Below, piece by piece: positions 1-24,737 of a DNA stretch of 24,737 bases (the first letter of the stretch is position 1; each line of letters opens with the position of its first letter). Location: the IMG/VR virus record IMGVR_UViG_3300026280_000003, one strand, 5' to 3'. The notes under the pieces were generated by a model that saw nothing but the letters and a program-made list of their open reading frames with translations, did no database searches and had not been told where the DNA came from. A program made the translations under genes and the position numbers. The stretch is from a virus.

Positions 1-99
1 ATACGAGAGCCGTCGAGCAGGCTCAGAATTTGTTCCGCTCTTTGTTCGAAGAAGTAAACATTGTTCGTGCTCAAAATTTCCTTGACGAGCTCCAATGCG
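1..99. repeat. Terminal direct repeat: window bases 1-99 are identical to 24639-24737 (circular-contig overlap or terminal redundancy)
   Basis: Compared the first 99 bases with the last 99 bases by eye; exact match. The terminase reading frame is continuous across the junction. Confidence 0.9.
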
Positions 100-287
100 C
101 TCAGGCGTAATGATGGGTTGGTTTTTCGCGTCACGAGGATTTTCAATGGCTCGGTTGCGTAGCCAATCAAGATCAGCAAATATTGCGCGACGGCGTAGCT
201 TTTTCCTGAACCTGCTCCGCCGAAAATAACAAGTTCAGTACCTTCGCGGATAGCTCTTGAGAAGAATCTCACATACTTAGGAATCAT
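1..287 (-). CDS. terL: Terminase large subunit, N-terminal segment (ATPase domain); continues across the window junction into 23735-24737
   Basis: Reverse-strand translation from the ATG at 287-285: MIPKYVRFFSRAIREGTELVIFGGAGSGKSYAVAQ..., with Walker A GGAGSGKS. The start overlaps the TerS stop. Frame is continuous with ORF 23735..24733 through the 99-bp repeat; combined length about 1191 nt, about 396 aa. Confidence 0.85.
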   Translation of the reverse strand, partial: MIPKYVRFFSRAIREGTELVIFGGAGSGKSYAVAQYLLILIGYATEPLKILVTRKTNPSLRLSALELVKEILSTNNVYFFEQRAEQILSLLDGSR

Positions 288-765
288 CCAATTGCTTGTC
301 CGCGTTTCCGTCATAGTTTGTTTTCTCCTCTTCAGGAAGTTCGATTATAAGCTTGGGTAACTTGTCGAGCTCAATTGCGGTTTCTTTCCTATCTGCCCAT
401 CTGTCGGGCGCGCGGTTCTTGAGGAAGAAAATGATCGCGGTCGTGTCGGGAGGCATGTGCTTTTTCATCACTTCTTGGCGCTCGTACACGGTTTCGTCTT
501 CGCGAATCACGCGATGCACTTTGATTTCTTGGTATTCGTATCCCATCGCGCGCTTGAATAAAGCGTTTTCGACTTTGTGTATCGCTTCTTCTTTGCCTTT
601 TTTTACCGCCTCACCTAATTGAGGATATTTCTTGAGCCATTCATAGAATGTGCGTTCCGATATCCCAAGATTGTGAGCGATTTCTTCTTGAGTTAGTCCT
701 TGCGAAGCATATTCGTAAGCTTGATTGATCATTTCTTTGTTGAACCTCGGTTTTCTTCCTCGCAT
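277..765 (-). CDS. terS: Terminase small subunit (HTH-containing)
   Basis: 162 aa. N-terminal HTH-like segment (LTQEEIAHNLGISERTFYEWL) and a TerS-like motif AIIFFLKNRAPDRW; stop overlaps the TerL start; RBS GGGGGAG upstream. Confidence 0.75.
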   Translation of the reverse strand: MRGRKPRFNKEMINQAYEYASQGLTQEEIAHNLGISERTFYEWLKKYPQLGEAVKKGKEEAIHKVENALFKRAMGYEYQEIKVHRVIREDETVYERQEVMKKHMPPDTTAIIFFLKNRAPDRWADRKETAIELDKLPKLIIELPEEEKTNYDGNADKQLDDS

Positions 766-952
766 GCGCTCCCCCCGTTGCTTGGACCTCCTCGGGTTTG
801 GAAAGGTTTTAGGCTTGCTCTTCAGCGTAGTTGAAGCGATATCTGATTGTGAATCGGATTGTACGGAGCTGGTTTCAGTTCGCTAAGTTTCTTTTTCACT
901 ATTTCCATCCTTAACCCTCCTGTTTCAAGATTACCACGCCGAATAAAATTAG

Positions 953-1129
953 TCAAGCCCACCATTCGATCGTGACTGCGCCTTTGTGTATTTCCGCAAT
1001 CACGTAGTGCGTTTCATGCCCTGACGCGTCCACAACGAGCCCTTCCGCCAACGTCGTGTCTCCGTTTTCAGAAAGAATGTTTTTCACTACTAAGATTCTT
1101 CCACCGTCAAGCTCTATGATTTCTTCCAT
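953..1129 (-). CDS. Hypothetical small early protein (about 58 aa; the track ORF 953..1177 extends to a TTG)
   Basis: ATG at about 1129 preceded by AGGGAGGT; the longer track ORF begins at a TTG overlapping the upstream stop. Confidence 0.4.
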   Translation of the reverse strand: MEEIIELDGGRILVVKNILSENGDTTLAEGLVVDASGHETHYVIAEIHKGAVTIEWWA

Positions 1130-1173
1130 GCTCCTACCTCCCTTCAGAAACGGGAGAGCTCTTCGCTCTCCCG

Positions 1174-1377
1174 TCAATGCGCAAATGCTTTTCTAAGTTT
1201 TTCGACTCTTTCTGCGTCCATTAGGCAAATGCCATCTTCGACGCGAACCCACGTGAGCTTTTTCCAGCCGAAGTACGCCTTCACAAGTCGCTTCACCTCG
1301 TGCCATTCTCCGCGTGTTATCTTCTTTGTCTCGTGAAACAGTGTTTTGCTTCCATTCGCAGATACGTAGATCCTCAT
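1174..1377 (-). CDS. Hypothetical small early protein (67 aa)
   Basis: ATG start with RBS GGGAGGTGG; stop overlaps the next start. Confidence 0.45.
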   Translation of the reverse strand: MRIYVSANGSKTLFHETKKITRGEWHEVKRLVKAYFGWKKLTWVRVEDGICLMDAERVEKLRKAFAH

Positions 1378-1583
1378 TTTTCCACCTCCCTTTCAAGCTT
1401 GCGAATATCCGCTTCAGCCACAAGCGTGACGCTAACGTTTCTGATATTTCTAACCTCATAGATGCCCCCGTTGCTGGCTGTGTAGAACGGTGTCATGCTT
1501 GCCAAAGCGATTAGGTAATCGCGAGCTTCTTCGATTGTTTCAAACACAAAACATATTTTGTCGTCGCGAATGGTCTTTGTCAT
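1374..1583 (-). CDS. Hypothetical small early protein (69 aa)
   Basis: ATG start with RBS AAGGAGGAG; ATGA overlap with the downstream gene. Confidence 0.45.
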   Translation of the reverse strand: MTKTIRDDKICFVFETIEEARDYLIALASMTPFYTASNGGIYEVRNIRNVSVTLVAEADIRKLEREVEK

Positions 1584-1598
1584 TTCCTCTCCTCCTTT

Positions 1599-1907
1599 TC
1601 ATTCGTCTTCCTCTTCGTTCGCCACGCGAAGTTGGTCCACGCGGTCTAAGTATCCCCCGACAAGCTCCAAGATCCTCTGTCTCAAAACGGGTTTTCGGTT
1701 CGAAAACTTGTACAGGTGCAACAAGACTATCAACGTCTTCAGCTGTGTGCGCGGGTTCTTGTTCTGAATCCTTTTCACAAGTTGAGCTACGCGAAGATTG
1801 TCAAATTCCTCCGCATAGAGCACCTTCCCGTTTTCGTTAACGACTTCGACGGTCGCAATTATCCCGCGTGGCGTTTTTTCAATTCGCGTCGCGATCTTCA
1901 TCGTCAT
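1599..1907 (-). CDS. Hypothetical early protein (102 aa)
   Basis: ATG start with RBS GGAAAGGAGGG; acidic C-terminus. Confidence 0.45.
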   Translation of the reverse strand: MTMKIATRIEKTPRGIIATVEVVNENGKVLYAEEFDNLRVAQLVKRIQNKNPRTQLKTLIVLLHLYKFSNRKPVLRQRILELVGGYLDRVDQLRVANEEEDE

Positions 1908-1995
1908 CCCTCCTTTCCACGCGCAAAAGCGCCATTACGAACATCCCCAACAAAGCGCCTAACAGTATTAGTCCCAAACCTACGATGAAGCTCAT
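1879..1995 (-). CDS. Small hydrophobic peptide (38 aa, one predicted TM helix, acidic tail)
   Basis: Hand-translated: MSFIVGLGLILLGALLGMFVMALLRVERRDDDEDRDAN. ATGA overlap with the upstream 44-aa ORF; below the ORF-track size cut-off. Confidence 0.3.
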   Translation of the reverse strand: MSFIVGLGLILLGALLGMFVMALLRVERRDDDEDRDAN

Positions 1996-2126
1996 TCCTC
2001 CTCGCCTCCTTCCTCCTCAGCTTTCTCAAGAATGTACTGCCACAAGTCCTCATCTTCAATCTGCCAAAGCTCGCAACCGTACTCCACAAGCGCAATTCTG
2101 TTTGCTCTCTCTAACAAGCTTTTCAT
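1992..2126 (-). CDS. Small acidic protein (44 aa)
   Basis: Hand-translated: MKSLLERANRIALVEYGCELWQIEDEDLWQYILEKAEEEGGEEE. RBS GGGAGGG 7-9 nt upstream of the ATG; first ORF downstream of the iteron cluster. Confidence 0.3.
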   Translation of the reverse strand: MKSLLERANRIALVEYGCELWQIEDEDLWQYILEKAEEEGGEEE

Positions 2127-2129
2127 GCC

Positions 2130-2400
2130 TCTTCCCTCCCTTTTCTAACCCGTTTCTACTGTTTCTACTTTCCCCCTCGCCACACGCCGCCGCAATCCCT
2201 TTTCTGGAGCGCGTTTCCGATACTTATCCGAGTTTCTAACCTTTCTACTTTTTCTACTCTCTTAAGAGTGAGAAAGCTTCTAATAGCTTTCTCACTCTAT
2301 ATATTTTTTATATAATATAGCGAAAGTAGAAACGCATTCAAACCCACATGAGAAGCGGTTTTGCGTTTCTAACCCGTTTCTAACGTTTCTACTTTTACCC
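2130..2400. repeat. Putative replication origin: three clusters of three GTTTCTA(C/A) iteron-like repeats at about 10-bp spacing, flanking a palindrome and an AT-rich tract
   Basis: TTTCTA cores at about 2142, 2153, 2162; 2233, 2242, 2252; 2366, 2376, 2386, plus one inverted copy at about 2326. Lies immediately 3' of the initiator-like ATPase gene. Confidence 0.6.
2265..2320. repeat. Perfect 14-bp inverted repeat (AGAGTGAGAAAGCT / AGCTTTCTCACTCT, 6-nt spacer) followed by an AT-rich tract (ATATATTTTTTATATAATATAG)
   Basis: Read directly; the arms are exact reverse complements. The AT-rich tract is a candidate DNA-unwinding element. Confidence 0.6.
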
Positions 2401-3639
2401 ATGTATAGCCCTCCATTTGCCTCTGGAGGAGTTTTCGGCTAACCCTTGCTTTTTGAGTTCCGATAAAGCGTTCCAGACGCTTTGTTGAGACGCTCCGATG
2501 AGCTTCGCCAGGTCTGCGGGGGTCATTTCACCTTCTTCGAGGAGCAAAGAATATACAACGTCTCTAACAGTGTTTCCCGTTATGTTCGTTTTCAATTCTG
2601 TGTCCGCGCGGGAGACGAATGCGAACCCGTCTTGCCACTGCACGCGCAAGCCGATGGGATCGTGATACCCAAAGTTCGATTTTCGGTTATAGAGCGCGTA
2701 AATGAAAGTTTTTTCGTCATTGGGAGAGCGCCAGAACTTGAGCTCCCAGGTCATGCGCGCGAGGTTTTCGAAAAACACAGACCCAATTGGCATAGCTCCG
2801 TCGTCCTTCTCTTTGTGCGCTTTCGAGACATGGGAAATGATTAACACAGTTACACCCATGTCAGTTAGTTTGCGCACCTCGGCGAAGAAGCGAATCACGT
2901 TCGCCGAATCGATCAGGTCTCCTCCAGACGCCAAAGCCGCTGAGTCGAGGATAACTAATTTCACGTCGTGATGTGTGACGTTTTCAACAATGTTATATAT
3001 CTCCTCTGTCAGTGTTCTTGTGGCTGAGAGGTACAGCGGCGGGCGTTTTCCCGCGATGTCGAGCACAAGCTGGTTGAAGCGCGTATTTGTCAACGCGTAG
3101 TCGAGCTCCCAGTCCATGTAGAGGACGTTGACAGGCTCTTGACGTTGATAATTGAGATCATATCCTGACTGGAGAAGGACAGCGACATAGAGCGCAACGA
3201 TGGATTTTCCTGCACCACCTGGAGCGTAAATAAGAGCAGGGACGCGCGCAGGGAGCAAAGGATATAACAGATATTCTACGGTCGGTAGCGTCTCACAAAA
3301 TTCCAGCGGTTTAGCTTCATTAGGTGTGTGCAAGAGTGTGAAAACGTCGTTGCAGAATTTTTCGACGAGTTTGATCCAATCAACGCCCTCGAAAGGACTC
3401 CCAGCCACGACGTTTTTGATGTAGTTTGCCACGTTTTTTCGGCTTTGCGGGCTGCTCAGGCTTAGTCTTCCAGTGTAAATATGCATTCTTGTGCCATCCA
3501 CGAGGACACCTTTGATTGTTAAAAGACCCGAAGTGTGTTCGTCTTCTATGATTCGCGACAACGAAAATTCGATTGTTCCCATGGCGTAGTTTTCAAACGC
3601 ATAACACCCCAAGGGGGTCTTTTCCACGATCATATTCAT
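2395..3639 (-). CDS. Replication initiator / helicase-like RecA-fold ATPase with C-terminal winged-helix domain
   Basis: Walker A APGGAGKS and Walker B LVILDSAA; C-terminal HTH-like segment TPADLAKLIGASQQSVWNALSELKKQG. Track ORF starts at a TTG at 3660; an ATG at about 3639 overlaps the upstream stop (ATGA) and follows AAGGAGGA. Confidence 0.65.
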   Translation of the reverse strand: MNMIVEKTPLGCYAFENYAMGTIEFSLSRIIEDEHTSGLLTIKGVLVDGTRMHIYTGRLSLSSPQSRKNVANYIKNVVAGSPFEGVDWIKLVEKFCNDVFTLLHTPNEAKPLEFCETLPTVEYLLYPLLPARVPALIYAPGGAGKSIVALYVAVLLQSGYDLNYQRQEPVNVLYMDWELDYALTNTRFNQLVLDIAGKRPPLYLSATRTLTEEIYNIVENVTHHDVKLVILDSAALASGGDLIDSANVIRFFAEVRKLTDMGVTVLIISHVSKAHKEKDDGAMPIGSVFFENLARMTWELKFWRSPNDEKTFIYALYNRKSNFGYHDPIGLRVQWQDGFAFVSRADTELKTNITGNTVRDVVYSLLLEEGEMTPADLAKLIGASQQSVWNALSELKKQGLAENSSRGKWRAIHG

Positions 3640-3896
3640 TCCTCCTTGAGCTTCTCCCAATCTGTCGGTTGTGGACGTGGGCTTGAAGATTTCTTTTGAA
3701 GTTCCTTCAGTAGGACTAACAATATTTCTTGTTGCTTTGCCATCTGCTCCTCGAGCTTTTCTATTCGCTCAAGGAGCATCCTTTCGGCGCGGGAGAGTCT
3801 TCCTGACGAACGGGGCGTGAGACCCCGTTCGTGGTAGAAATCGAGCCAATCAGAAGACACAGGGAAATCGATGTAGTCTTCATTCATGCGAATCAC
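3636..3896 (-). CDS. Hypothetical protein (86 aa) with a coiled-coil segment
   Basis: ORF track; translationally coupled to the ATPase gene; no recognisable motif. Confidence 0.4.
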   Translation of the reverse strand: MIRMNEDYIDFPVSSDWLDFYHERGLTPRSSGRLSRAERMLLERIEKLEEQMAKQQEILLVLLKELQKKSSSPRPQPTDWEKLKEE

Positions 3897-4611
3897 CGTC
3901 TTGCGAGCGTGTTTCGGATAACAATGTTTGTAGCTCGTCTATCAATTTGGATGCTTGAGCTTTTGTTAGCTCTGACGAACTTTGTACGCCGTATCTTTGT
4001 TTGATATCGGCGACAATTTCTTCAACAGAGCATTCGGCTTCTTTTGCGAGATCGTGGATAAGGTGCGTGATCATTTTGATTTGCTTCTCCGTCGCAAGTT
4101 CTTGTTTTTGCGTCTGTTGCGCCGGCTTTTGCTCTGCTTCGGTGGTTTCCATATCTTCTAAGTCTTGGGTGAAAACATTTGAGGCTCCGAGCCCAGTCAA
4201 AACGGCGTCGACGTGTGCACGTTTCTTAGCCATTTTTAATATTGTGTTTGCGTTTCCAAGAGGATTATCGCTCCAATGACGTTTTTCCTTGCTGTTGCAC
4301 GAGCCGAATCCTTCTCCCACGACCTGACCAGACGCGGTTGTGAGTGTAGCCTTGAACATGTAATAAACATAGTTTTCTTCCTCAATCGCTTTTAGGAGCT
4401 CAAAATGTGGTATGAGATTGAAAAGGCGCGTGAGTTTCTCGGCACCCGACTTGTAGAGCGATGGTTTCCCTTCGCGTTTCCCGTGCGGGAAACCGTAATC
4501 GACGTCCGCTTCAAGAACTTCTTTTTGTAACAGTCTGAAGAGATCGTACTGTTCCTTCAGCGCCGTGATTTCTTGCTGTGTTACTGAGATAAGTTTTGGC
4601 AAGTCACTCAT
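3880..4611 (-). CDS. Hypothetical protein, possibly a single-strand annealing / recombination protein (ERF-like?)
   Basis: Track ORF 3880..4620 begins at a GTG that is part of GGAGGTGA; the ATG 9 nt downstream is the likely start. Sits between the resolvase and the replication ATPase. The YYMFKATLTTASG segment resembles, from memory only, the ERF core. Confidence 0.3.
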   Translation of the reverse strand: MSDLPKLISVTQQEITALKEQYDLFRLLQKEVLEADVDYGFPHGKREGKPSLYKSGAEKLTRLFNLIPHFELLKAIEEENYVYYMFKATLTTASGQVVGEGFGSCNSKEKRHWSDNPLGNANTILKMAKKRAHVDAVLTGLGASNVFTQDLEDMETTEAEQKPAQQTQKQELATEKQIKMITHLIHDLAKEAECSVEEIVADIKQRYGVQSSSELTKAQASKLIDELQTLLSETRSQDGDSHE

Positions 4612-4804
4612 TTTCTTCACCTCCCAAAACTTTCTTCAGTTCCTCGTAGAAGGCTTGTGCCTCGTCCTTTTCGAAGGTTTCCGTGCTCCCGTCTACGAAC
4701 TGGATCTGCAACAGCGGGCCGCGCGCGAAGACGTACGTTATCGCGGATACGTTGTTCGTGTTCAGCCAAATAACACTTTGCTCTTTCTGTAGCCTCACCC
4801 ACAT
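4604..4804 (-). CDS. Hypothetical small protein (66 aa)
   Basis: ATG start; preferred over an overlapping Arg-rich alternative frame (4617..4832). Confidence 0.4.
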   Translation of the reverse strand: MWVRLQKEQSVIWLNTNNVSAITYVFARGPLLQIQFVDGSTETFEKDEAQAFYEELKKVLGGEENE

Positions 4805-4852
4805 GCCTTCGCCTGCCTCCCTCAGGCTCCACCTCCTCCTGAGTTTTCTACA

Positions 4853-4881
4853 TCTAACATAGTGGGAGGGACTATGTTAGA
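4853..4881. promoter_or_regulatory. Perfect 11-bp inverted repeat TCTAACATAGT-GGGAGGG-ACTATGTTAGA in the 5' region of the leftward operon (operator or RNA hairpin)
   Basis: Arms are exact reverse complements; the 7-nt loop GGGAGGG is SD-like on one strand. About 50 nt upstream of the ATG at 4804. Confidence 0.5.
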
Positions 4882-4972
4882 CGTGCTAAAGTTTTTCGAA
4901 TCTCGCTAAGATAATATCGACTAAGTTTTGCGATCGCATGAAGCTACCGTAACGATCCCCAAACGCATAGCT

Positions 4973-5062
4973 GAAAAACACGTGAATTTATCATAGGGAG
5001 AAAAACACGTGGTATGATAGAATTGAAAGAAAATAGTTGTGGTAAACTCCAGGTGTGGTAAA
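4973..5062. repeat. Direct repeats in an AT-rich intergenic region: GAAAAACACGTG x2 (27-bp period) and TGTGGTAAA x2 (16-bp period)
   Basis: Copies at about 4973-4984 and 5000-5011; and at about 5038-5046 and 5054-5062. TGTGGTAAACT recurs on the opposite strand at about 5477-5488, just upstream of the resolvase gene. Confidence 0.5.
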
Positions 5063-5092
5063 ATAGAATATTAGCCTGCTCCACCTCCCTTC

Positions 5093-5129
5093 AAATAGAA
5101 AAAGCGCTTTAACCCTCCTTTGGGAGGGT
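5093..5129 (-). terminator. Putative intrinsic terminator/attenuator overlapping the 3' end of the resolvase gene
   Basis: Minus-strand hairpin ACCCTCC-CAAA-GGAGGGT followed by the palindrome AAAGCGCTTT and a T-rich run TTTTTCTATTT. Confidence 0.45.
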
Positions 5130-5459
5130 ATTTCGTTTCAAAAGTTTCTTCAGGGTCTCTAACTCCATGCAAACAATCCAATCTTTTCTGTCTGCTCTAA
5201 CAAAGAGCAAATCCGCGCGCTCAAGGAAACGATACAGCGTTTCAAAACCGCGTGCGCGCCTCTTGACCTCTACGACCCACTGCGGATGTCCCTTTTCGAA
5301 AACGACGACATCGCCTTTTTGGAACTCGGACGCTCCCGAAAGTGGGACGCGTTTTGCGTCGAAACCGAGCTCGCGAAGGATTTCTTCTGCCTCCTTCTCG
5401 CCACGGTATCCTTTTCTCCGCGAAAGCTTTCCCACAAACAATCCCCCCTTCTCTGCCAT
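5109..5459 (-). CDS. Holliday-junction resolvase, archaeal Hjc-type PD-(D/E)xK nuclease
   Basis: Pattern GYRGEKEAEEILRELGFDAKRVPLSGASEFQKGDVVVF...VVEVK matches the Hjc arrangement (G..E...L...GF...R...SG......D....(E)xK). Likely start is the ATG at about 5459 (RBS GAAGGGG); the track ORF begins at a GTG at 5465. Confidence 0.55.
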   Translation of the reverse strand: MAEKGGLFVGKLSRRKGYRGEKEAEEILRELGFDAKRVPLSGASEFQKGDVVVFEKGHPQWVVEVKRRARGFETLYRFLERADLLFVRADRKDWIVCMELETLKKLLKRNTLPKEG

Positions 5460-5549
5460 TTGCACCCCTTCAACAATAGTTTACCACATGAACGGCGCGG
5501 TGGCTAAGGGAGGAGAACATGGGTTGCGCTTTCTCGGTTTCATCATTCT

Positions 5550-5614
5550 GCAATGTACTTGATCGCAAGTCGTTACGGAGTCTACATTATGTCGCAATGT
5601 AGGGGGGGTATAAT
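5550..5614 (+). promoter_or_regulatory. Control region for the plus-strand operon: three AATGTA half-sites, including the inverted repeat CTACATT-N7-AATGTAG, directly upstream of a TATAAT -10 box
   Basis: GCAATGTAC at about 5550-5558; CTACATT at about 5582-5588; AATGTAG at about 5596-5602; TATAAT at about 5609-5614. No good -35 hexamer at 17-bp spacing; the inverted repeat occupies that position. Confidence 0.5.
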
Positions 5615-5683
5615 TGGGGTGAAAAGTGTTTGAGAAGCCCCGCCGGGTGAGGTGGCGGGAAAACGGGAAAGGAGGGGTGAAGG

Positions 5684-5902
5684 ATGAAAGATGTGCGAAA
5701 AATCATTGAAGATTGGCTCGAGAACAGGATGTGGCATCTCATACCACAAGAGACACGGCAAAAAGCGGAGCAGTTGTTGCAGCAAGGGGTTGCGGGAATC
5801 GATTTAAAGGGTCTCATCATCGTGCTTCATCATTTTGTTACTGAACCGGTCGAGACTCGTTACGGAACCGACATCGTAGCGCAACGAAAGGCAGTAAAAT
5901 AA
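5684..5902 (+). CDS. Hypothetical protein (72 aa), first gene of the only plus-strand operon
   Basis: ATG preceded by GGAAAGGAGGGGTGAAGG; no recognisable motif. Confidence 0.5.
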   Translation: MKDVRKIIEDWLENRMWHLIPQETRQKAEQLLQQGVAGIDLKGLIIVLHHFVTEPVETRYGTDIVAQRKAVK

Positions 5903-5956
5903 AAGTGGAAAACAACAAATGCCGTCGGGGAACGACGGCAAAAGGGAGGGGGAAGT

Positions 5957-6310
5957 ATGGGAAAGATAACTTTAGAGTCATTGGAGGCACCCTATGTCTT
6001 AAAAGAAAGCACGTATTTCTGGCGGACGGAGCGGCATGCGGCCGCGCGCCGCAGCCGCGAGAAATACTACGTGAGCCTGGTAGAAGACTGGTTGAGGCGC
6101 CTTTGTGAACAACACGGGTTGAACCTCAGAATTGAAAAGACAGACACGAGCGTCGCGGCATACAACAAAGATGAGCAGGTATTCAAATTCACAATCAGGT
6201 TAAGTTGCCGCCACGTTTACAAGAGACAAGATGTGAAAAAGTTACTGCGGCTGGTTTCTGAAACGCAAAGGAAAGGAGGTGACGGACGTCCTCCCGCGGC
6301 AGGGGAGTAA
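5957..6310 (+). CDS. Hypothetical protein (117 aa), basic
   Basis: ATG preceded by AGGGAGGGGGAAGT; no recognisable motif. Confidence 0.5.
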   Translation: MGKITLESLEAPYVLKESTYFWRTERHAAARRSREKYYVSLVEDWLRRLCEQHGLNLRIEKTDTSVAAYNKDEQVFKFTIRLSCRHVYKRQDVKKLLRLVSETQRKGGDGRPPAAGE

Positions 6311-6339
6311 AAACGGAGAAGAGGAGGTGGAAGCCCGCG

Positions 6340-6693
6340 GTGGGAGGCGCGGGCAAGGCGATGGGAAAGGCAGAAGTACTTCAAAAGCTGCGCAAATTCT
6401 TGAGAAAGAATCTCTGGGAGATCCCCGAGGTCCAAGAAGCGGTCGCGCAGTTGGAGAGATTGGCCGCGCAGCACGATTGGTACCCCTCAGACGTGCTCAA
6501 CTTTGAAATCATGTATGAGAACAAGCCGCGAGCGCTCAGGATAATTTTCAGTGCTCCTGTTGAAACGCTCGGCGAAGACTCCGTAAAAGAGATGCACCGC
6601 TGGCAAGAAGTAATAGCGACCGCAGTCCAGTCCTTTGTTTTGAAAACCCTCGAAGCCGAAGGTCTCCCATGGGAAATTGTGAACGAGCTCTGA
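6340..6693 (+). CDS. Hypothetical protein (117 aa by the track GTG start; alternative ATG at about 6361)
   Basis: GAGGAGGTGG about 9 nt upstream of the GTG at 6340; ends at a TGA immediately before the bidirectional terminator. Confidence 0.5.
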   Translation: MGGAGKAMGKAEVLQKLRKFLRKNLWEIPEVQEAVAQLERLAAQHDWYPSDVLNFEIMYENKPRALRIIFSAPVETLGEDSVKEMHRWQEVIATAVQSFVLKTLEAEGLPWEIVNEL

Positions 6694-7244: not shown

Positions 7245-7411
7245 TTTGTGAACTTGCTCGCCACATTGCTGCCGCAGTAGATTCCGAACAACGCGATAAC
7301 GACGTGGGAAAAGTTATCGTTGTCGATCTTGTCGAAAACTTTGAGGAGAAAAAAAGCCGCAATGAGAAGCAGCGCCAAGATGAATTTGCGGCTTTTCCAC
7401 TTCTCTTCCAT
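7241..7411 (-). CDS. Small two-TM membrane protein (56 aa), holin-like
   Basis: Hand-translated: MEEKWKSRKFILALLLIAAFFLLKVFDKIDNDNFSHVVIALFGIYCGSNVASKFTK. RBS GAGGTGA; two hydrophobic segments; stop overlaps the next start. Not in the ORF track (under 60 aa). Confidence 0.45.
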   Translation of the reverse strand: MEEKWKSRKFILALLLIAAFFLLKVFDKIDNDNFSHVVIALFGIYCGSNVASKFTK

Positions 7412-7778: not shown

Positions 7779-7891
7779 GATCCCTCCAGTCGGAAACCTT
7801 CTTCTTTTATCTCGAACTTTGTTAGCTTACCATCCTTTAAAAGCGCACAACAAAGTCTGCCTTGCTCGTTTACATATGCCCATACACGCAT

Positions 7892-17614: not shown

Positions 17615-18346
17615 TCATTCTGTCATGGTTTGAATCGTCAATTCGGAGATTGTAAACTCTCTTGTCGTTGCGTAGAACTCGTCTGGCGTGTCTTCAGCTG
17701 TTTGCGTTGTCTCATACGCTTTACCCGTGATTGACAATGTTTTATTTGCGCCAAGAGCGATGGAGATTGAGAAGGACACCTCCGAAAGCGTGTTGGAGAG
17801 GCCCGGAGTCGCGTTCAGTTTCACGCTCAGTGTGCCATCAAAAGATTTGAAAATCGTGTCCGCCACGGTTGGGTAAACGTCCGCGCCCCAGATGAATTCA
17901 ACATCCCAGCTCGCGTTCAAATTGAATTCAAGCACGCTAAGTTGGTTCGACCCGACTGTGATTGTTGCATCCTCGAGCATCGCGAGCGTGCCAGGAGCTG
18001 GTGTTGAACTTGGTGGTGTTGCGGTCTTGCCTTTGACCTCAAGCGAGAAGTTTATCACATCCGCTTTCTTACCTGACAAAGTTAGAGACGTCAAAACTCC
18101 TTCGACCGCTTTTCCTGCGCCACCAACGGTCACGCTTGTCATCGCCGAGTGCGTGATAGCGTTCGTGATTGTCGTCGTCGAATCAAGGATACCAGCGATC
18201 GAAGCGGTAGCTAACTTTTTTCGCCCCGCCACAACTGTATAGTGTGGCAAACCTTTGTAAGTCTTCGCTTGGAATTCGTCGGCAAAACTCGCGCTCGTGT
18301 ACAAGCCTCCAAAAGCGTTCACGTGCTGATGATCCACGTATGGCAT
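17615..18346 (-). CDS. Putative major tail (tube) protein (243 aa)
   Basis: Thr/Ser/Ala-rich composition with beta-rich character, at the canonical position before the chaperone and tape measure; no sheath-sized gene is present. Confidence 0.5.
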   Translation of the reverse strand: MPYVDHQHVNAFGGLYTSASFADEFQAKTYKGLPHYTVVAGRKKLATASIAGILDSTTTITNAITHSAMTSVTVGGAGKAVEGVLTSLTLSGKKADVINFSLEVKGKTATPPSSTPAPGTLAMLEDATITVGSNQLSVLEFNLNASWDVEFIWGADVYPTVADTIFKSFDGTLSVKLNATPGLSNTLSEVSFSISIALGANKTLSITGKAYETTQTAEDTPDEFYATTREFTISELTIQTMTE

Positions 18347-18347
18347 T

Positions 18348-18770
18348 TCAATTCACCTCCACGTAGTAATTCAGTTCGAGACGTATCGCGATCCCCAGCA
18401 CAACAAAGTTGTTTTCCTCATTTAACGTGCGCAAACTGAGTGAAAACTCTCTAACTTGGAACATGACGTTGTCGACAAAGACGCGTTCTCCTATCTTGAA
18501 AAACTCTTCAAGAGCGTCTTTCTTTGCCAGAAGTTCCAGCATAGCCGTGTTCTTTGCTTGCTCTAACACTCTGTGAACGACAAAGATACTTAGCGTGGCG
18601 CGTCTCACCTTCGCTTGCGCCAAAGCCTTTTCGTATGCGTCGTTTGTGACGTCTAAAAAAGCGCACGGGAAAGATTGTACGGCGCTCCAATTCGGCTCCG
18701 CTAAGCTAAGCGGTATGCGTGTGATTTCGTAGAACTTTTTCTGAAAAGCCTTGAGCATCTCGACAGTCAC
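18348..18770 (-). CDS. Putative neck / tail-terminator protein (140 aa)
   Basis: Position between head-completion genes and the major tail protein. Confidence 0.35.
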   Translation of the reverse strand: MTVEMLKAFQKKFYEITRIPLSLAEPNWSAVQSFPCAFLDVTNDAYEKALAQAKVRRATLSIFVVHRVLEQAKNTAMLELLAKKDALEEFFKIGERVFVDNVMFQVREFSLSLRTLNEENNFVVLGIAIRLELNYYVEVN

Positions 18771-18774
18771 AATC

Positions 18775-19191
18775 TCAACTCCTTAGGTGTTCTAAAATCT
18801 GTTGAATTGCAAACGGAACATCTGTGCTTTCATCGATTTCGAGAAACGGGCGCGCCGGAATTCGACTCGTGCCATATTGGTGGTAAGGTCCGTAATGCAC
18901 ACCCGTGTAGACTTCTGCGGTATTTTCACTAACTTCGTGAGTTATACTCGCTCTCAAGCGACCGTGAAACACCAAAATCGGGTACGCGGTCCCTTTGGCT
19001 CTTATCTTGCGTTTCTTAGTCTTCTCGCTCAAGTCTGGCCACGCCGTCACACGCCCCGTGTTGCGTTCGAAAGTCTTTTGCGACTCGCTTTGAAGATGAA
19101 TCGCTATCTTTTTTAGCGGGTTCGAAAGATCTTTGAGCTTTTCAATTTTGTTTTTCAGCGTCTCACCTTCGAAGATAGCGCGAATTACCAT
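18775..19191 (-). CDS. Virion morphogenesis protein (Mu gpG / HK97 gp10-like)
   Basis: C-terminal motif YGPYHQYGTSRIPARPFL characteristic of this family. Confidence 0.55.
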   Translation of the reverse strand: MVIRAIFEGETLKNKIEKLKDLSNPLKKIAIHLQSESQKTFERNTGRVTAWPDLSEKTKKRKIRAKGTAYPILVFHGRLRASITHEVSENTAEVYTGVHYGPYHQYGTSRIPARPFLEIDESTDVPFAIQQILEHLRS

Positions 19192-19538
19192 CTTTCCAGC
19201 TCCTCGTCTGTTATTGCGCGCGGGTCTGAGCGCACAACAGGACGGCTGTAGTTCTGAATCAACGCTGTGTTTTTCATCATCCTGTAAAACTGATCGGCGC
19301 GCTCTGCGTAGTATTTCGCCTGTTCAAGATAACCGAATCGCTCGTGAAGACGCTGAAGCGCGAAGTACTTCGCAAAAAGCTCCACAATTGGGCCTGTGTT
19401 GTCACCAACCATAGCGTTAATTTCGTCTAACAGATCTCGAATCGCTTTATCGTCGGGCGCTTGCGTTTCTGGATCGGTCAGAAGCGCGTTTTTCAGAGTT
19501 TGCGGGATGAAACTCTCTAAATCTTGCCATGTTATCAT
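19185..19538 (-). CDS. Putative head completion / connector protein (117 aa)
   Basis: First gene after the major capsid gene; RBS GAGGTGA. Confidence 0.35.
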   Translation of the reverse strand: MITWQDLESFIPQTLKNALLTDPETQAPDDKAIRDLLDEINAMVGDNTGPIVELFAKYFALQRLHERFGYLEQAKYYAERADQFYRMMKNTALIQNYSRPVVRSDPRAITDEELERW

Positions 19539-19582: not shown

Positions 19583-20581
19583 TTACGGTTGCGCTTCGAA
19601 CGTGACCGCGTAAATTTTGAGGGCGTTCACGTTGAGGACATACGGCAACGGTCTCGAAACCGCATAAACGTCGACTGAGCTTCCATCGACGGATGGCGCT
19701 TCAAATGCGAAAATGTCTCCAACAACTGGTTTCATATCGGCATTCAAGTTCGCGTTCGCAACCGCACCGTACGCGATGCCAAGCCCGTTCGGGTCCAAAA
19801 GCACAACTTTTCCTGTGCCGAATGGAGACTCCGAGCCGATTGTGACGTCGTAAATCAGGACTGGAGGCAAATCTGGAAGCTCAAACAACGGCGTCACGAA
19901 AGGTTCGGTTTTCAACGATATCGTGCCAACAGCGTAGTTTGCCTTTGTTAGCGCTTTGTCGATGTATTTGTTGTCGAGCAGAACGCTCGCGACGTCTTTG
20001 CTCACGAGGATGTACGCTGGGGCGAAGCCGTGTTTCTTTTGCTCAGTTACGAGATCTTTGAGCCACAAAAGAAGGTTAGAATCTGGGTCCAGCGTCACTG
20101 CGCTCGGCGCGGTGTACGTCAACGTGTACGTGTACGTGCCGTCGTTGTAGTTTATCTTCCCTGTTCCCGCGATCTGAGCGCACATGAGCTCGATGCGGTT
20201 TAGGACCATGCGTTTCAAGCGCGCGACGGCTTCGGCGTAGACGAACATAACATTGTTTGTCACAGATCCTGTGTCTGCGATGATCAAACTCGGGTCAGAG
20301 ATCTGCGAAAGGAGCAATTCTTCGGTGATCGGAATTTTCACAAAGATCTGCGGTGGGTTAATGTCTGTTTCCGTGTACGCGAAGGTTTCGTTTTGGTTGA
20401 CCGCTTGCGTGTAAAGACCGCGAAGAGGCGCGGCAGTTACCGTCGCGTCCATGTTGCGCAGCGTCACCTTTGGAACAGGTGACAAAGCTCTGTTTACTTG
20501 TTCGAACGTCTTTGTTAGGAACGAGGGCGCAGGTTTTGCCACTTTGATAAAAGCCGTCAGTAGTTTCCAATCCTGTGGCAT
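19583..20581 (-). CDS. Major capsid protein (332 aa)
   Basis: Follows the protease/scaffold gene in a Mu-like head module; size typical of an HK97-fold capsid protein; a strong hairpin lies downstream. Confidence 0.6.
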   Translation of the reverse strand: MPQDWKLLTAFIKVAKPAPSFLTKTFEQVNRALSPVPKVTLRNMDATVTAAPLRGLYTQAVNQNETFAYTETDINPPQIFVKIPITEELLLSQISDPSLIIADTGSVTNNVMFVYAEAVARLKRMVLNRIELMCAQIAGTGKINYNDGTYTYTLTYTAPSAVTLDPDSNLLLWLKDLVTEQKKHGFAPAYILVSKDVASVLLDNKYIDKALTKANYAVGTISLKTEPFVTPLFELPDLPPVLIYDVTIGSESPFGTGKVVLLDPNGLGIAYGAVANANLNADMKPVVGDIFAFEAPSVDGSSVDVYAVSRPLPYVLNVNALKIYAVTFEAQP

Positions 20582-20603: not shown

Positions 20604-21758
20604 TTACTTCCAGCGCATTTGTTTAGCCACAATATCAACAATGTCAGCGCTATCTGGGTTCACGAATTGACGTACCAAATTGCGTTTCGTGTGCTCTGCG
20701 AGTTTCAAGATACTTTCTTTGTCCATCTTACCTTCTTTGAATAGTCTAACATATTCTTCGGCAAGTGCTGGCGGTACACCTTTTTTGACTAACTCTTGTT
20801 TGAACGCGTTGAGCTCGCGCTCTCTTTCTTTCTCTTTGAATTCGTTGATCGTGTTCTCGTACTCTGTTAGCTTGTCCATAAGATGTTTGTTCATTCTTTT
20901 CAGGCGCTCGATCTCCTCGCACAACGCGACTTCGTCCGAGCCACGGAATTCTTCTCCGAACAGTTCGTAAATCTCCTTGATCTTGCGAATAACTTCGAGC
21001 TTTTCCGCGTCTGTCAGATCGACCTCAACACCACGCGCGCCATGCAGGTAAGCAAGTGCCGCGACGGCGGCGCGAAAGTAAAGGTGAAATTCTCCGTTTT
21101 CGAGTTTGCAGACTGGAAACTTGTAGGCTGCTTTCACTTCAGGAACTCCGCTGGGGCCTTCTTCAAAATCGCGCGTGTTCGCGTACAAATGACACTTCGC
21201 ATACGCTTTCCATCCTTTTTCCTCGATAATTTTGTTTCCATCCCGCGCGTCGTCCCAGTCCCATTGCTTCGTGCGCTCGGGAACAACAAGCATCCCGTTC
21301 CAACGTTTCCTCTCGCTGAGGAGTCGTCGCATACCCGAAAACATGGCGATGAAAACATCTTTGAAAGTTAGCTTCGTCTCAGGAAGCGCGGGGCGATTCG
21401 TGAGCGCGACGCCGAGCAACACGACACCGACTTCCTCTCCCGTCTCGCGGTCCACATAAGCGAAGTCGATTTCGGGGCTCACGTACTCGTACTTGTGTTC
21501 CTCTAACATTTTTTGTCCTTCCTCATTTAGTTCGAGCACTGCCCACAAGCCGTCTTCTTCGATGTAGAGCTCCTTCACGTCGCCGTACTTTTCACTTGAT
21601 TCGTGATCAATGTTCACGAACGGCTTGTAGTGTGGATAGCCTTTGTTGAAGTTCTTCACGATCTCTTCGGCGAGCTCTTTCGTAAACTCGATGGGTTCCT
21701 TTTGACCGTACACGTAGATTTTGCCGAAAGGAAGAATCTTCGCTTTCGCTAACATCAT
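20604..21758 (-). CDS. Prohead protease / scaffold protein (Mu gpI-like), with a C-terminal coiled coil
   Basis: N-terminal region VNIDHES...DGLWAVLELNEEG...YEYVSPEIDF resembles the Mu I pattern (VDYEH...DGLY...YRY.SP.F); C-terminal half is Glu/Lys-rich coiled coil. Confidence 0.6.
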   Translation of the reverse strand: MMLAKAKILPFGKIYVYGQKEPIEFTKELAEEIVKNFNKGYPHYKPFVNIDHESSEKYGDVKELYIEEDGLWAVLELNEEGQKMLEEHKYEYVSPEIDFAYVDRETGEEVGVVLLGVALTNRPALPETKLTFKDVFIAMFSGMRRLLSERKRWNGMLVVPERTKQWDWDDARDGNKIIEEKGWKAYAKCHLYANTRDFEEGPSGVPEVKAAYKFPVCKLENGEFHLYFRAAVAALAYLHGARGVEVDLTDAEKLEVIRKIKEIYELFGEEFRGSDEVALCEEIERLKRMNKHLMDKLTEYENTINEFKEKERERELNAFKQELVKKGVPPALAEEYVRLFKEGKMDKESILKLAEHTKRNLVRQFVNPDSADIVDIVAKQMRWK

Positions 21759-21759: not shown

Positions 21760-22623
21760 TCACCTCACCGTCCTCAAAATTTCCCTCACTATTTCGACAT
21801 CCTCAGGACGCTTTTGGATCTCGGGAAGCTCAGCCATTTTGTGTTCGTCGAGAATTTCTTGCGTCTTCACGTGGTGCAATTCTGGGATTAGATAAGAGCG
21901 ACAATTCACGTGCAAAGGAGGCGTGTTCAGAGCAAGAATATCAACATTGTGAGCTGGGATGAACATTCCATGACGCTCTTGGCAAATTTCTGTTGTTCTG
22001 TCGTCCAACACGGCGGTGAATCGGTAACCTTCGATGTACTGAACAGTGTTTGCGAGATTTCCGACGTTGAAAGCGCGTGTTGTTTCGGTGCGCGCAATAG
22101 CCTTCGCGCGCTTTTTCTCGAACGCTTTGAACTGCTCTTGGATGTATTTTATCGCTTCTTCTTCGCTCATTCCGCGCAACAATGTTTGACGAACCGCGTC
22201 TGTGATCTCTGTCGCTAACGCTCGCAATTCGTATTGCGACACGCTAACCGTGTAGGACTCTAAGAATTTTAGCGCGGGTTTGTGAGCGTGAAAGACATAG
22301 TTAACCGCTTCCTCAGCGTTCTCGAAGACCTTTCCTATGACCTTCGCTAAGATTTGCCATTCACTTGTCAAAGATTGTTTGAGATACAGATAAAGCTCCT
22401 CCTCTGAGAACGTCGCTAATCTGCGTGGGCGCTTGCGAACGCTCGTGAGAACTCCTAAGCTGAAGGCGTAGAGTAGCGGGCGAAAGAGATTTTCGGCTCC
22501 TTGTTCCACATCTATCTTACCAGTGTTAAGGTAGTTGTCAAGACTTTTTTTGAACACTCTTTGCACGTTGAACAATATTTTTCGCTCCGAAGAAAGCATG
22601 AGTTTACCAACGACGCTCGACAC
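21760..22623 (-). CDS. Head morphogenesis protein (Mu F-like / SPP1 gp7 family)
   Basis: Conserved ARTETTRAFN and DDRTTEICQ...HVNCRSY motifs. Confidence 0.75.
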   Translation of the reverse strand: MSSVVGKLMLSSERKILFNVQRVFKKSLDNYLNTGKIDVEQGAENLFRPLLYAFSLGVLTSVRKRPRRLATFSEEELYLYLKQSLTSEWQILAKVIGKVFENAEEAVNYVFHAHKPALKFLESYTVSVSQYELRALATEITDAVRQTLLRGMSEEEAIKYIQEQFKAFEKKRAKAIARTETTRAFNVGNLANTVQYIEGYRFTAVLDDRTTEICQERHGMFIPAHNVDILALNTPPLHVNCRSYLIPELHHVKTQEILDEHKMAELPEIQKRPEDVEIVREILRTVR

Positions 22624-22625
22624 GA

Positions 22626-23738
22626 TTACTCCTCCAACTTCGGCAGATTTAATTCAGAGCGAATGAATTCCGCGTCCGCGACGAGGTCCAAGACGCCAAC
22701 TTCAAGTAGTTTCACGATGATATCCGTCATGGCCTGTTTGGCCTCGATGTCTTTGTCTTCCCTAATCTTGAAAAACCCATAACTCTCGATGTTCGAGAAG
22801 TTGTAGTCGAGTATTCGCGCAACAAGCTGGTCAATGAGCAATTCGGCCACATAGTTCGCCTCGGCCGCGGCGACGGACCGAAACACGTCAAGATGAGATT
22901 TTGCGAGCGCGTACGAACCAACCTTGTCCTGTTTCATGATAGCTTGCGGGATCAAAAGACCGCGCAAGATCAGCGTGTTGAGATACTCGATCGCTTGTTG
23001 GAACACGTCTCCAATATTGCGCGAGCTTTCCAAAAGTTGAACCTCATCATCTTTGTATACCGCGACAACGCCGTTGCGGTAAAGATTCTTCAACGCGTCT
23101 GCGAGAGCTTGCGTGTCGCTAACAGTCTTTCCCAGAATTGCAGGAGCCGCGAAACGTTCCATAGCCGTTGCCCAATATTTCACAAGCATGTCTTTCATCT
23201 TGAAGCGCGGATAAATGCGCGCCAACACACTCTTAGGCGCAAAAATAGAACCACGGAACAGGATCAAGCATTTTTCAACTGGGATTTCGACAACCTCGCC
23301 TGGTTGCTGGTACTTGACGGCTGTCAAAATTTGTTTGTTGTTTTCGTCCTTTTCGGTCACGAAGCTAACGCGTGTGATGTCGAGAGGTATGAGGCCTTTA
23401 AAATAAACCTTGTCTTGTTTGATTGTCCAAAGAATCTCAGCGACGCTGATTCCCCATGCGAAGTAAGAAGTGAGGAGGTTATGTAACTGTTGGCGAATCG
23501 AATAGCGCGCTTGTTCAAAGTTAGCTCTGACGAAGTTTTGTAGCTCCTCGACCGGGTTGAAGTAATCTCCAATCATGCCGAGAGTTGTGTTCGAGAGGAT
23601 GTCCAAGCCTGCGCCGATCGTCTCATCTCGCAACATCTTTTCGACGTCTTGCGCCGTGAGACGCAAAGGAACCGACTCTAAAGATGTTAGCGAAGGTAAA
23701 AGGTGTTCGCTCGCGTACTGCCGGAGATCCACACTCAT
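22626..23738 (-). CDS. Portal protein (370 aa)
   Basis: Immediately downstream of TerL with an ATGA overlap and upstream of the Mu F-like gene; assignment is by synteny and size only. Confidence 0.55.
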   Translation of the reverse strand: MSVDLRQYASEHLLPSLTSLESVPLRLTAQDVEKMLRDETIGAGLDILSNTTLGMIGDYFNPVEELQNFVRANFEQARYSIRQQLHNLLTSYFAWGISVAEILWTIKQDKVYFKGLIPLDITRVSFVTEKDENNKQILTAVKYQQPGEVVEIPVEKCLILFRGSIFAPKSVLARIYPRFKMKDMLVKYWATAMERFAAPAILGKTVSDTQALADALKNLYRNGVVAVYKDDEVQLLESSRNIGDVFQQAIEYLNTLILRGLLIPQAIMKQDKVGSYALAKSHLDVFRSVAAAEANYVAELLIDQLVARILDYNFSNIESYGFFKIREDKDIEAKQAMTDIIVKLLEVGVLDLVADAEFIRSELNLPKLEE

Positions 23739-24737
23739 ACGATCACCCTTTCAACGTGCGGTTTCACGTTTTGGCGATTCTGGTAGACCGCGTATCTGAG
23801 CGCGTCCATAGCGTGGTCCATAAATTTGACTGGTTCATCGAGTGGGTTGCCGTTTCGGTCTTCTTTCCATTTGTAGTTGCGAATCTCTTTTAGTGTATTC
23901 ACACAATGTTCGCTTATGTAGATTGTCCTGCGTTTCAGAAAATCTATGCCCGCTTTGACATCTTTCAAAGCGGGTTGGATGTTGAAGCCCGCGCGTCTGA
24001 TTTCTTCGATTCTTGCGGGTTCCGAAGAGTCAGCGAAAATTGGCGCATTGCGCTCCCGCACGAATTGCTTCAGTAAGTCAATCAACTCTGCGTTTGTTAG
24101 CTTCGTCTTATAGAGTTCGTCGAGCACCCACACGTTTTGGTCTTTGATGCCAACCTTCAGGACCACAGTGGGGTTGTTGAAACCGAAGTCGATTCCGTAT
24201 CTGATTTCGTCAAATTCGCTCGGCGCGTCTTTCACAACACGATAGTTCGTGAAGATCAGGTTTTCGGGTGTTGCAAATCTACCTTCCGCGTAGATCTCGT
24301 AGAATGTTTTGTCTTCGTTTTTTAGTGCTTCTAACTGTCTTATGTACTCCTCATCAAGGAAGGGATTGTCCCGATACGTCGTATGCAAGATCATAGCGCT
24401 TGGGTTCTGACGCTCAAAAAAGAGCTTGTACGTCCAGTTATGCACAGAAACGGGGTTGAATGCCAAAATTATTTGATTCGGAATCAGCCAACCTTTACGG
24501 CTTCTCACTTGCGGGCGTCGTAGCCTGAGCTTTAAGATTCTATAATCTTGTTCGTCGAACTCAGTCGCTTCTTCCATCCACACAATGTTAAATTCAGCGC
24601 TTTTGATCTTCTCAGGATCGTCCATTCCTCTGAAGTAGATACGAGAGCCGTCGAGCAGGCTCAGAATTTGTTCCGCTCTTTGTTCGAAGAAGTAAACATT
24701 GTTCGTGCTCAAAATTTCCTTGACGAGCTCCAATGCG
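23735..24737 (-). CDS. terL: Terminase large subunit, C-terminal segment (Walker B and nuclease domain)
   Basis: ORF track 23735..24733; IVWMEEATEFD Walker B-like motif and a C-terminal nuclease-like region (GIDFGF...); sits directly upstream of the portal-position gene. Confidence 0.85.
   Translation of the reverse strand, partial: ALELVKEILSTNNVYFFEQRAEQILSLLDGSRIYFRGMDDPEKIKSAEFNIVWMEEATEFDEQDYRILKLRLRRPQVRSRKGWLIPNQIILAFNPVSVHNWTYKLFFERQNPSAMILHTTYRDNPFLDEEYIRQLEALKNEDKTFYEIYAEGRFATPENLIFTNYRVVKDAPSEFDEIRYGIDFGFNNPTVVLKVGIKDQNVWVLDELYKTKLTNAELIDLLKQFVRERNAPIFADSSEPARIEEIRRAGFNIQPALKDVKAGIDFLKRRTIYISEHCVNTLKEIRNYKWKEDRNGNPLDEPVKFMDHAMDALRYAVYQNRQNVKPHVERVIV
24639..24737. repeat. Second copy of the 99-bp terminal repeat (identical to 1-99)
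   Basis: Exact identity with bases 1-99. Confidence 0.9.

Follow-up and report, generated by a model that had tools for sequence, protein, structure and literature searches.

A very probably complete 24.6-kb genome of an uncultivated siphovirus-like phage from Yellowstone hot-spring mats

INTRODUCTION

The Pseudomonas phages B3 and D3112 are siphoviruses with Mu-like heads, and their genomes, like that of Mu, are about 37 kb long. The DNA analysed here, virus record IMGVR_UViG_3300026280_000003 of IMG/VR (24,737 bases, 48.4% GC; called the window below, at its full length), is very probably the complete genome of an uncultivated tailed double-stranded DNA phage of Yellowstone hot-spring mats, and at about 24.6 kb it is shorter than these. 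It resembles B3 and D3112 in combining a probable non-contractile tail with a largely Mu-type head, and it has Portal_Mu, Phage_Mu_F, Mu-like_Pro and a GemA-like domain in common with Mu. Unlike Mu and the Mu-like phages, it has no recognizable transposase, MuB or repressor, its capsid protein belongs to Phage_cap_E and its terminase to Terminase_3, and it closes as a circle rather than ending in host DNA.

Among deposited phages, the best match to its large terminase (terL) is found in Thermoanaerobacterium phage THSA-485A, with 45% identity over 89% of the length. This terminase is of the same PBSX/Terminase_3 type, but the 41.9-kb genome of THSA-485A has no nucleotide similarity to the window. 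Megablast found nothing similar to the whole unit genome among 50,697 phage records, and tblastn found no match there to the capsid protein or to the replication protein.

To our knowledge, the only characterized viruses of the Thermotogota are temperate siphoviruses of Marinitoga. Three of these, MPV1, MCV1 and MCV2, are temperate and about twice the size of the window phage. The characterized Marinitoga viruses come from deep-sea hydrothermal-vent strains (PMC10970483). They resemble the window phage in being siphovirus-like members of thermophilic communities and would share a host phylum with it if its suggested Thermotogota host is real. They differ in coming from deep-sea vents rather than terrestrial springs, and the window phage has no integration genes.

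GENOME COMPLETENESS

The longest exact match between the start and the end of the window is 99 bases, positions 1-99 being identical to 24639-24737 and the flanking bases being different. An identity of this length cannot be due to chance. Both copies lie within terL, and the features concerned are as follows.

1-99, no strand: left copy of the overlap, inside terL (codons ~72-105), identical to 24639-24737
24639-24737, no strand: right copy of the overlap, redundant; trimming it leaves the 24,638-bp unit
1-314, minus strand: 5' part of terL, residues 1-105 with the Walker A motif GGAGSGKS; contiguous with the 3' part on contigs L001 and L002
23735-24638, minus strand: 3' part of terL, residues ~105-405 and stop codon; end of the ATPase domain and RNaseH-like nuclease domain

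The non-redundant unit is thus 24,638 bp, the window minus the 99-bp overlap. When it is circularized, a single minus-strand open reading frame (ORF) of 405 amino acids (aa) spans the junction, from the ATG at 314 down to base 1 and on from 24638 to the stop codon at 23735-23737. The junction falls in codon 105, within the Terminase_3 ATPase domain. The protein matches Terminase_3 over residues 29-225 (E 1.6e-42), Terminase_3C over residues 255-389 (6.1e-15) and phrog_2 (2.3e-61), and the same uninterrupted 405-aa frame is present on contigs that are not broken at this point (L001, L002, L012, L013 and L037). Because a complete large terminase results, joining the ends repairs a gene rather than fusing unrelated sequences into a chimera. 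An earlier reading of the window from its letters, referred to below as the original prediction, had described the identical 99-base ends, the unit of about 24,638 bp and a terL frame that stays open across the junction. All three agree with the present results, to which the minus strand of terL, left unstated there, can be added.

The same genome was located on other public contigs by exact look-ups of the window proteins. Contig k141_273257 of ENA assembly ERZ27296002 is 24,779 bp long, i.e. the 24,638-bp unit plus an exact 141-base end overlap; it has zero mismatches to the window unit and ends at the equivalent of window position ~14060, within a tail gene. JGI contig Ga0061020_1000041 (3300003688; 50,800 bp, read whole in overlapping pieces) consists of 2.06 head-to-tail copies of the unit. 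Its sole differences from the window unit are three N (record positions 40430, 40433 and 50384), and the first two of these lie 1 and 4 bases past the equivalent of window base 1. The unit closes identically in another assembly and carries a full set of virion, lysis and replication genes, and both observations support a complete genome.

The length of the overlap varies with the assembly (99 versus 141 bases), its break point shifts and both breaks are intragenic. The 'k141' in the name of the ENA contig agrees with its 141-base overlap; both lengths are among the word sizes commonly used by assemblers, as in the k lists of MEGAHIT. An overlap that depends on the word size, at a break point that shifts, identifies the 99 bp as a word-length remnant of assembly along a cyclic path rather than a physical terminal repeat. 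A de Bruijn-graph assembler would have gone once round such a path, leaving a 99-base overlap at ends that fall within terL. A true direct terminal repeat (DTR) of a linear genome with fixed ends, as in T7- or T5-like packaging, would formally look like identical ends too, but here the ends fall in the middle of the terL ATPase domain, the identical genome breaks some 14 kb into the window with a longer overlap in the second assembly, and the third assembly passes through both break points twice. A short physical DTR should show the same fixed ends in all assemblies at a length independent of the assembler, whereas overlaps of 99 and 141 bases were found at different places. A DTR at the window ends is thereby excluded, and a linear genome with such fixed ends is extremely improbable.

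The original prediction had taken the identical ends as the mark of a circular or terminally redundant assembly. The circular part stands, as the circle closes in a second assembly, but the 99 bp are not a biological redundancy. Neither a real DTR with defined ends nor host sequence at the ends is seen in the contigs: the overlap differs between assemblies, and no host flank is present on any of the contigs of the phage (variants included) and its sister lineage, of which there are at least 15.

Some features of these data weigh against the reading of the window as a complete genome of defined form. Ga0061020_1000041 is probably either a merger of permuted pieces or a contig connected with the source of the window, perhaps as its parent, and its tandem arrangement is not taken as direct evidence of concatemeric DNA. 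The ENA assembly may have been made from the same reads as the JGI assembly, so that its independence holds for the assembly but perhaps not for the sample. Finally, assemblies alone cannot separate a circle, a permuted linear genome and a cos genome whose ends were joined in replicating DNA.

DNA PACKAGING

The start of terL is overlapped by the gene for the small terminase subunit (terS).

277-765, minus strand: small terminase with an N-terminal helix-turn-helix (HTH); phrog_309 (5.7e-49), HTH_Tnp_1, HTH_28 and Terminase_5; 38-bp overlap with the start of terL

The HTH_Tnp_1 match on terS reflects the HTH only and not a transposase. The solved terminases nearest to the large subunit are Sf6 gp2 (1.6e-13), a Thermus phage TerL (2.2e-11) and the SPP1 nuclease domain (1.2e-10). 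Sf6 and SPP1, whose terminases were identified from their Protein Data Bank (PDB) codes, we take to be headful packagers, and as far as we could recognize them the solved-structure matches below E 0.01 include no TerL of a cos or DTR phage. A Mu-type portal, a MuF/SPP1-gp7-like protein and an HTH small terminase are the usual context of pac phages. Headful packaging from concatemers is fairly likely and is favoured over cos packaging; a pac-type headful terminase would then cut the concatemers into linear virion DNA that is circularly permuted and terminally redundant. A complete genome packaged from cos sites, with fixed cohesive ends elsewhere in the unit, is the unlikely but not negligible alternative. 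Genomes with cos ends assemble as circles as well, and terminase family matches are not decisive alone when their E values are only 1e-10 to 1e-13; yet the portal, the MuF-like protein and terS are in pac-type company, and two of the three nearest solved TerLs come from the presumed headful phages.

HEAD AND TAIL

The unit carries 40 accepted genes (92.7% coding), all but three of them on the minus strand. All 40 ORFs (at least 44 aa) were scanned against Pfam and PHROGs, and ten unassigned proteins were also scanned against NCBIfam, where the only matches were to ArsR-like HTH models, on the replication protein. In the Pfam and PHROG scans no module is missing: packaging, head, tail, lysis and replication are all represented. 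Scans of the window for tRNA and tmRNA genes and against Rfam found nothing. A satellite or a gene-transfer agent was considered and rejected, because the structural genes are complete and the element carries a replicon of its own and a terminase.

The head genes lie between terL and the tail genes.

22626-23738, minus strand: portal protein of Mu type (Portal_Mu PF06074, 1.7e-42), at most 27% identical to that of any deposited phage
21760-22623, minus strand: MuF-like minor head protein (Phage_Mu_F PF04233, 7.5e-18)
20604-21758, minus strand: head maturation protease/scaffold with a Mu gpI-like N-terminal part (Mu-like_Pro, 4e-09; phrog_328, 1.9e-12)
19583-20581, minus strand: major capsid protein of the E family (Phage_cap_E, 1.8e-18; phrog_29)

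The protease match (Mu-like_Pro PF10123) scores 36.9 bits against a cutoff of 25.2 and aligns only the N-terminal ~65 residues. No family model for Mu gpT matched the capsid protein in the Pfam and PHROG scan. The head is therefore Mu-like, as had been predicted, in its portal, its MuF protein and its gpI-like protease, and departs from Mu in having an E-family capsid protein rather than gpT and a terminase of PBSX/Terminase_3 type.

These three Mu-type head proteins, together with the GemA-like domain, are what would be expected of a Mu-like prophage, excised or transposable, whether or not it was captured together with host flanks. The window has no match to a DDE transposase (MuA), MuB, a Mu repressor or an integrase, however, and the genome closes on itself without variable host ends in three assemblies. 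A terL scan of a collection with one genome per bacterial or archaeal species recovered only three remote relatives, all on contigs of metagenome-assembled genomes (MAGs): 55% identity in a Thermotogae MAG and 40% each in Bacteroidetes and Campylobacteraceae. It is hardly conceivable on these grounds that the window is such a prophage. The Thermotogae contig was rejected as a relative of the phage as a whole, terL being all that the two have in common.

The tail genes follow in the order listed.

18348-19538, minus strand: three head-tail joining genes (117, 138 and 140 aa), the middle one for a tail-completion or neck protein
17615-18346, minus strand: probable tail tube, 243 aa; weak Phage_tube_2 match and position before the chaperone and tape measure genes
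17173-17604, minus strand: probable tail assembly chaperone, assigned by position; no Pfam or PHROG match
15277-17115, minus strand: tape measure protein, 612 aa (PhageMin_Tail, 2.3e-36; phrog_1533, 2.9e-67)
10455-15280, minus strand: tail-tip or receptor-binding genes (405, 75, 408, 203, 344 and 147 aa), assigned by position; the most variable block among relatives

The neck gene (18775-19191) matches Phage_tail_S (3.1e-12) and phrog_26 (2.2e-23), and the other two head-tail joining genes have no Pfam or PHROG match. The order of tube, chaperone and tape measure genes and the lack of a sheath make a non-contractile, siphovirus-like tail a reasonable and probable reading. No ORF matches a sheath or a myovirus baseplate family, and the interval from neck to tube contains no unassigned ORF large enough for a sheath. 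The particles would be siphovirus-like, and the 612-aa tape measure would make their tails about 90 nm long, at the roughly 0.15 nm per tape-measure residue of lambda. A non-contractile tail had been predicted, and the tape measure and the missing sheath bear this out.

The weak point is the tube, which counts against the siphovirus reading: its assignment is sub-threshold in Pfam (Phage_tube_2, 22.5 bits, under the cutoff of 27) and its AlphaFold2 model is of low confidence (mean predicted local distance difference test 50.7). The model is poor because the homologue search gave only two relatives in an index of 5.8 billion proteins. Nearly all of its fold matches in the PDB are proteins of the tail-tube fold (T5/DT57C, lambda V, monocin), at TM scores of only 0.2-0.39, and they may be taken as a weak hint. 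No XXXYYYZ slippery site for programmed frameshifting was found in the putative chaperone gene.

The six tail-tip genes have no family match except for the 147-aa gene (phrog_644). Variation is evident here on two scales. The 408-aa protein (within 12616-13842) is 47% identical in L038, a contig of the sister lineage described below, versus 80-93% for other genes, and contig L005 is 99.3% identical to the window and then continues with different genes right after the 344-aa tail gene (10455-11981 region of the window).

REPLICATION, LYSIS AND LIFESTYLE

The early region contains a nuclease gene, a replication module and a candidate origin.

5109-5459, minus strand: Holliday-junction resolvase-like nuclease (phrog_244 (RusA), 1.5e-16; PDDEXK_15, 2.3e-06; Hjc, 2.7e-05)
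2395-4804, minus strand: replication module of a 66-aa gene, a GemA-like gene (243 aa), an 83-aa gene and an AAA_25 ATPase gene (412 aa)
2142-2400, no strand: candidate origin with GTTTCTAM iterons, an AT-rich stretch and a hairpin, directly 3' of the AAA_25/winged-helix gene
953-2126, minus strand: five small genes (58, 67, 69, 100 and 44 aa) between the origin region and terS; gene calls on L001 and L002

The 412-aa replication protein combines an AAA_25 domain (7.2e-21; RepA/DnaB-like RecA fold) with a C-terminal winged helix (TrmB/HTH_24, ~1e-05) and matches phrog_10048 (5.2e-38), and the 243-aa protein matches GemA (2.4e-06). GTTTCTAM occurs eight times in the window, with 1.8 occurrences expected per whole window from shuffles, and seven of the eight lie within 2152-2392. 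The region also contains the repeat families D5 and D8, and the iterons flank an AT-rich stretch and a perfect hairpin with a 14-bp stem (2265-2298). We infer from this arrangement an iteron-type origin at 2142-2400 bound by the adjacent winged-helix ATPase. Replication would start at these iterons, with the winged-helix domain of the AAA_25 ATPase binding them. The five small genes have no significant family match in Pfam or PHROGs and are conserved in L012, L014, L037 and L038.

Upstream of the replication genes lies a 304-bp gap (4833-5108) with an inverted repeat of 11-bp stem, TCTAACATAGT...ACTATGTTAGA. In the same gap GAAAAACACGTG occurs twice, at a spacing of ~25 bp, and so does the motif GTGGTAAA. 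At the end of the resolvase gene there is a terminator-like hairpin (5112-5129). The repeats and the hairpin are possibly operator or promoter elements. Sites found in a scan for sigma-70 promoters were no commoner than in shuffled sequence, and the scan was not used.

Between the replication and tail regions are the genes for lysis, accessory functions and a short cassette on the opposite strand.

9479-10273, minus strand: metallophosphoesterase of the Mre11/SbcD-like exonuclease family (phrog_7339, 6.2e-51; Metallophos, 1.3e-06)
7416-9422, minus strand: lysis cassette as a whole (phrog_669, phrog_1193, phrog_739 (weak)), comprising the next five genes
9192-9422, minus strand: holin-like protein, 76 aa, with a C-terminal transmembrane segment
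8693-9187, minus strand: SLT lytic transglycosylase (SLT, 3.8e-18)
8298-8696, minus strand: HExxH protein, 132 aa, with an intact HEVLH zinc-protease motif; weakly M78/ImmA-like, phrog_87; between the SLT and spanin-like genes
8009-8320 and 7416-7775, minus strand: two spanin-like proteins, recognized by transmembrane and coiled-coil segments
6744-7411, minus strand: 56-aa membrane protein and 166-aa transglutaminase-like protein, the latter (6744-7244) accessory
5684-6693, plus strand: three opposite-strand genes (72, 117 and 117 aa), called on every contig; the sole plus-strand genes

Lysis would proceed through the holin-like protein, the SLT transglycosylase and the spanin-like proteins, a set that suggests a host with an outer layer. 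The 166-aa protein matches the CEP76 peptidase-like family PF24656 (3.2e-05) and Transglut_core (3.3e-04), both under the cutoff. Its gene is present in the window, L040 and L044 and absent from L041, L042, L043, L045 and L046, and is thus a presence/absence accessory gene. The three opposite-strand genes have no Pfam or PHROG match. They diverge from the resolvase gene over a 224-bp gap (5460-5683), both GC and AT skew flip at them, and they could form a regulatory or anti-defence cassette.

No match to an integrase, serine recombinase, DDE transposase, MuB, CI/Cro-type repressor, anti-repressor or ParA/ParB was found among the ORFs of the window in Pfam or PHROGs, or in NCBIfam for the ten proteins also scanned there, and none of the ORFs matched a toxin-antitoxin system. 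Nor was there an integrase in the 14-21 kb read of two distant small phages with the same replication module. The window phage has no machinery for integration and is therefore most likely a virulent phage, or at any rate one that does not integrate. The original prediction, which had seen no integrase, repressor or attachment site, is upheld to this extent, by absence of a match in 40 ORFs and of a host flank. Taken with the packaging and tail genes, the reading that we consider most likely is a non-integrating, headful-packaging siphovirus. That it is non-integrating is a conclusion from absence, drawn with some 15 ORFs without an assignable function, and the three divergent genes or the HExxH protein could hide a repressor or switch; these points tell against it.

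A temperate phage-plasmid would be maintained differently, as a low-copy plasmid prophage replicating from the iteron origin with the AAA_25/winged-helix protein as initiator and with the divergent cassette or the HExxH protein in an immunity switch. Several features would suit it: the iteron cluster adjoins the initiator-like gene, three genes are transcribed divergently from the early genes, the weak M78/ImmA-like match comes with an intact HEVLH motif, and the phage is found in many samples in spite of having no integrase. The features of an autonomous replicon (AAA_25/winged helix and candidate iterons) are nevertheless not specific to plasmid prophages, and iteron origins are common in virulent and lambdoid phages too. 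The HExxH gene sits within the lysis cassette and has no Xre-type neighbour, no partition, toxin-antitoxin, repressor or anti-repressor gene was matched in the window, and the replication protein, without a match in the phage records, has no tblastn match in 72,556 plasmids either. A phage-plasmid is accordingly quite improbable, and a virulent or otherwise non-integrating phage remains the preferred reading.

VARIANTS AND RELATIVES

Variants of ~99% identity occur in several JGI and ENA samples. Ga0272449_1001181, IMGVR_UViG_3300027279_000026 and IMGVR_UViG_3300005638_000008 have ~99% nucleotide identity to the window and the same gene order. The variants differ from the window in their break points and overlap lengths, and some of them lack the 166-aa gene or have other genes after the 344-aa tail gene. 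A metagenome scan with the portal protein found two contigs only, one of which is 27,751 bp long (first 17.6 kb read); its surplus of ~3 kb over the unit would be either wrap-around or an insertion.

A sister lineage (Ga0072500_155653, GBSSSed77CDRAFT_c000715 and IMGVR_UViG_3300000083_000019 / 3300000085_000007) comes from samples of Great Boiling Spring type, one of them named GBSSSed77C. It has the same gene order, and its structural and replication proteins are 80-93% identical to those of the window. It differs by 2 kb of additional sequence, inserted between the 58-aa gene and terS, that encodes a ParB_N-domain protein, a 268-aa ORF and a Vut_1/YhhQ queuosine-precursor transporter (L014, 1269-3286; L038, ~2014-4057; also in L051-L055). 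The ParB_N-domain gene, which is absent from the window, adjoins the transporter gene, and in L049, one of the two small phages with the same replication module, a ParB_N gene and a TAGT-family gene occupy the position of the insertion. The insertion may be a cassette for 7-deazaguanine modification of DNA. The 268-aa ORF was considered as the DNA-guanine transglycosylase of such a cassette and is unconfirmed in that role: it has no Pfam match, no similarity to the TAGT protein of L049 and a best PDB match of E 0.78. The early region of the sister lineage differs as well; L054 carries an opposite-strand gene of the Cas_VVA1548 family (PF09652; 2512-3153) with no equivalent in the window.

More distant are two uncultivated small phages, JARKUL010001522.1 of GCA_029972165.1 (22.5 kb) and Logan contig DRR318520_1800 (28.6 kb). 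Both have the GemA-like, ~85-aa and AAA_25 genes (51-54% identity) and share Terminase_3, MuF, SLT and metallophosphoesterase proteins with the window phage, but their heads are of HK97 type (Phage_portal, Peptidase_S78, Phage_capsid) with no Mu-type portal or protease, and their structural genes are divergent from their replication genes. Homologues of the AAA_25 protein are also found on 6-32-kb contigs of archaeal MAGs assigned to Thermofilaceae and Thermosphaera (P0017, P0153 and P0154; the representative P0017 is 39% identical to the window protein). These are either related archaeal elements or mis-binned viral contigs from hot springs. An archaeal host was rejected in spite of them, as the phage encodes an SLT peptidoglycan transglycosylase.

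HABITAT AND HOST

The habitat follows from the sample identifiers, which lead to the mats of Mushroom Spring, Yellowstone (PMC6338057, PMC4911352). Sample 3300005638 is a metatranscriptome of the Mushroom Spring mat; a study of the undermat there is linked to sample 3300005452. The variant contig IMGVR_UViG_3300005638_000008 (L013; 5,952 bp) extends from terS to the capsid gene and is ~99% identical at the protein level. As it comes from the listed metatranscriptome, the late genes are apparently transcribed in situ.

In the undermat of Mushroom Spring, according to that study, only one organism is more abundant than Pseudothermotoga. The best named homologue of the Vut_1/YhhQ transporter of the sister lineage is a chromosomal gene of Thermosipho melanesiensis, with 73% identity; the next named homologues, mostly from Bacillales together with Fusobacterium and Peptostreptococcus, are at ~50-54%. 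The GC content of Pseudothermotoga hypogea is near 50%. The 48% GC of the window and the transporter match may be a lead to a host in the Thermotogota and are not proof of one. A tentative proposal, and on present evidence a somewhat doubtful one, is that this phage and the sister lineage infect Thermotogota, such as the abundant Pseudothermotoga of the undermat, and that both are virulent or episomal rather than integrating.

CONCLUSIONS

The architecture of the phage is that of an ordinary mosaic siphovirus-like genome, with nothing mechanistically new in it; what is new is at the sequence level. Trimmed to 24,638 bp, the contig is a trustworthy reference for a lineage with almost no similarity to deposited phages. 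The case also shows that an end overlap of fixed length proves a cyclic assembly path and not physical ends.

Several samples contain the lineage. The literature links at least two of them to the Mushroom Spring mat, and a metatranscriptome of that mat contains it as well. If the link to a Thermotogota host is true, a phylum from which very few viruses are known would gain a non-integrating one, and the phage would be a recurrent, transcribed member of a classic model mat community.

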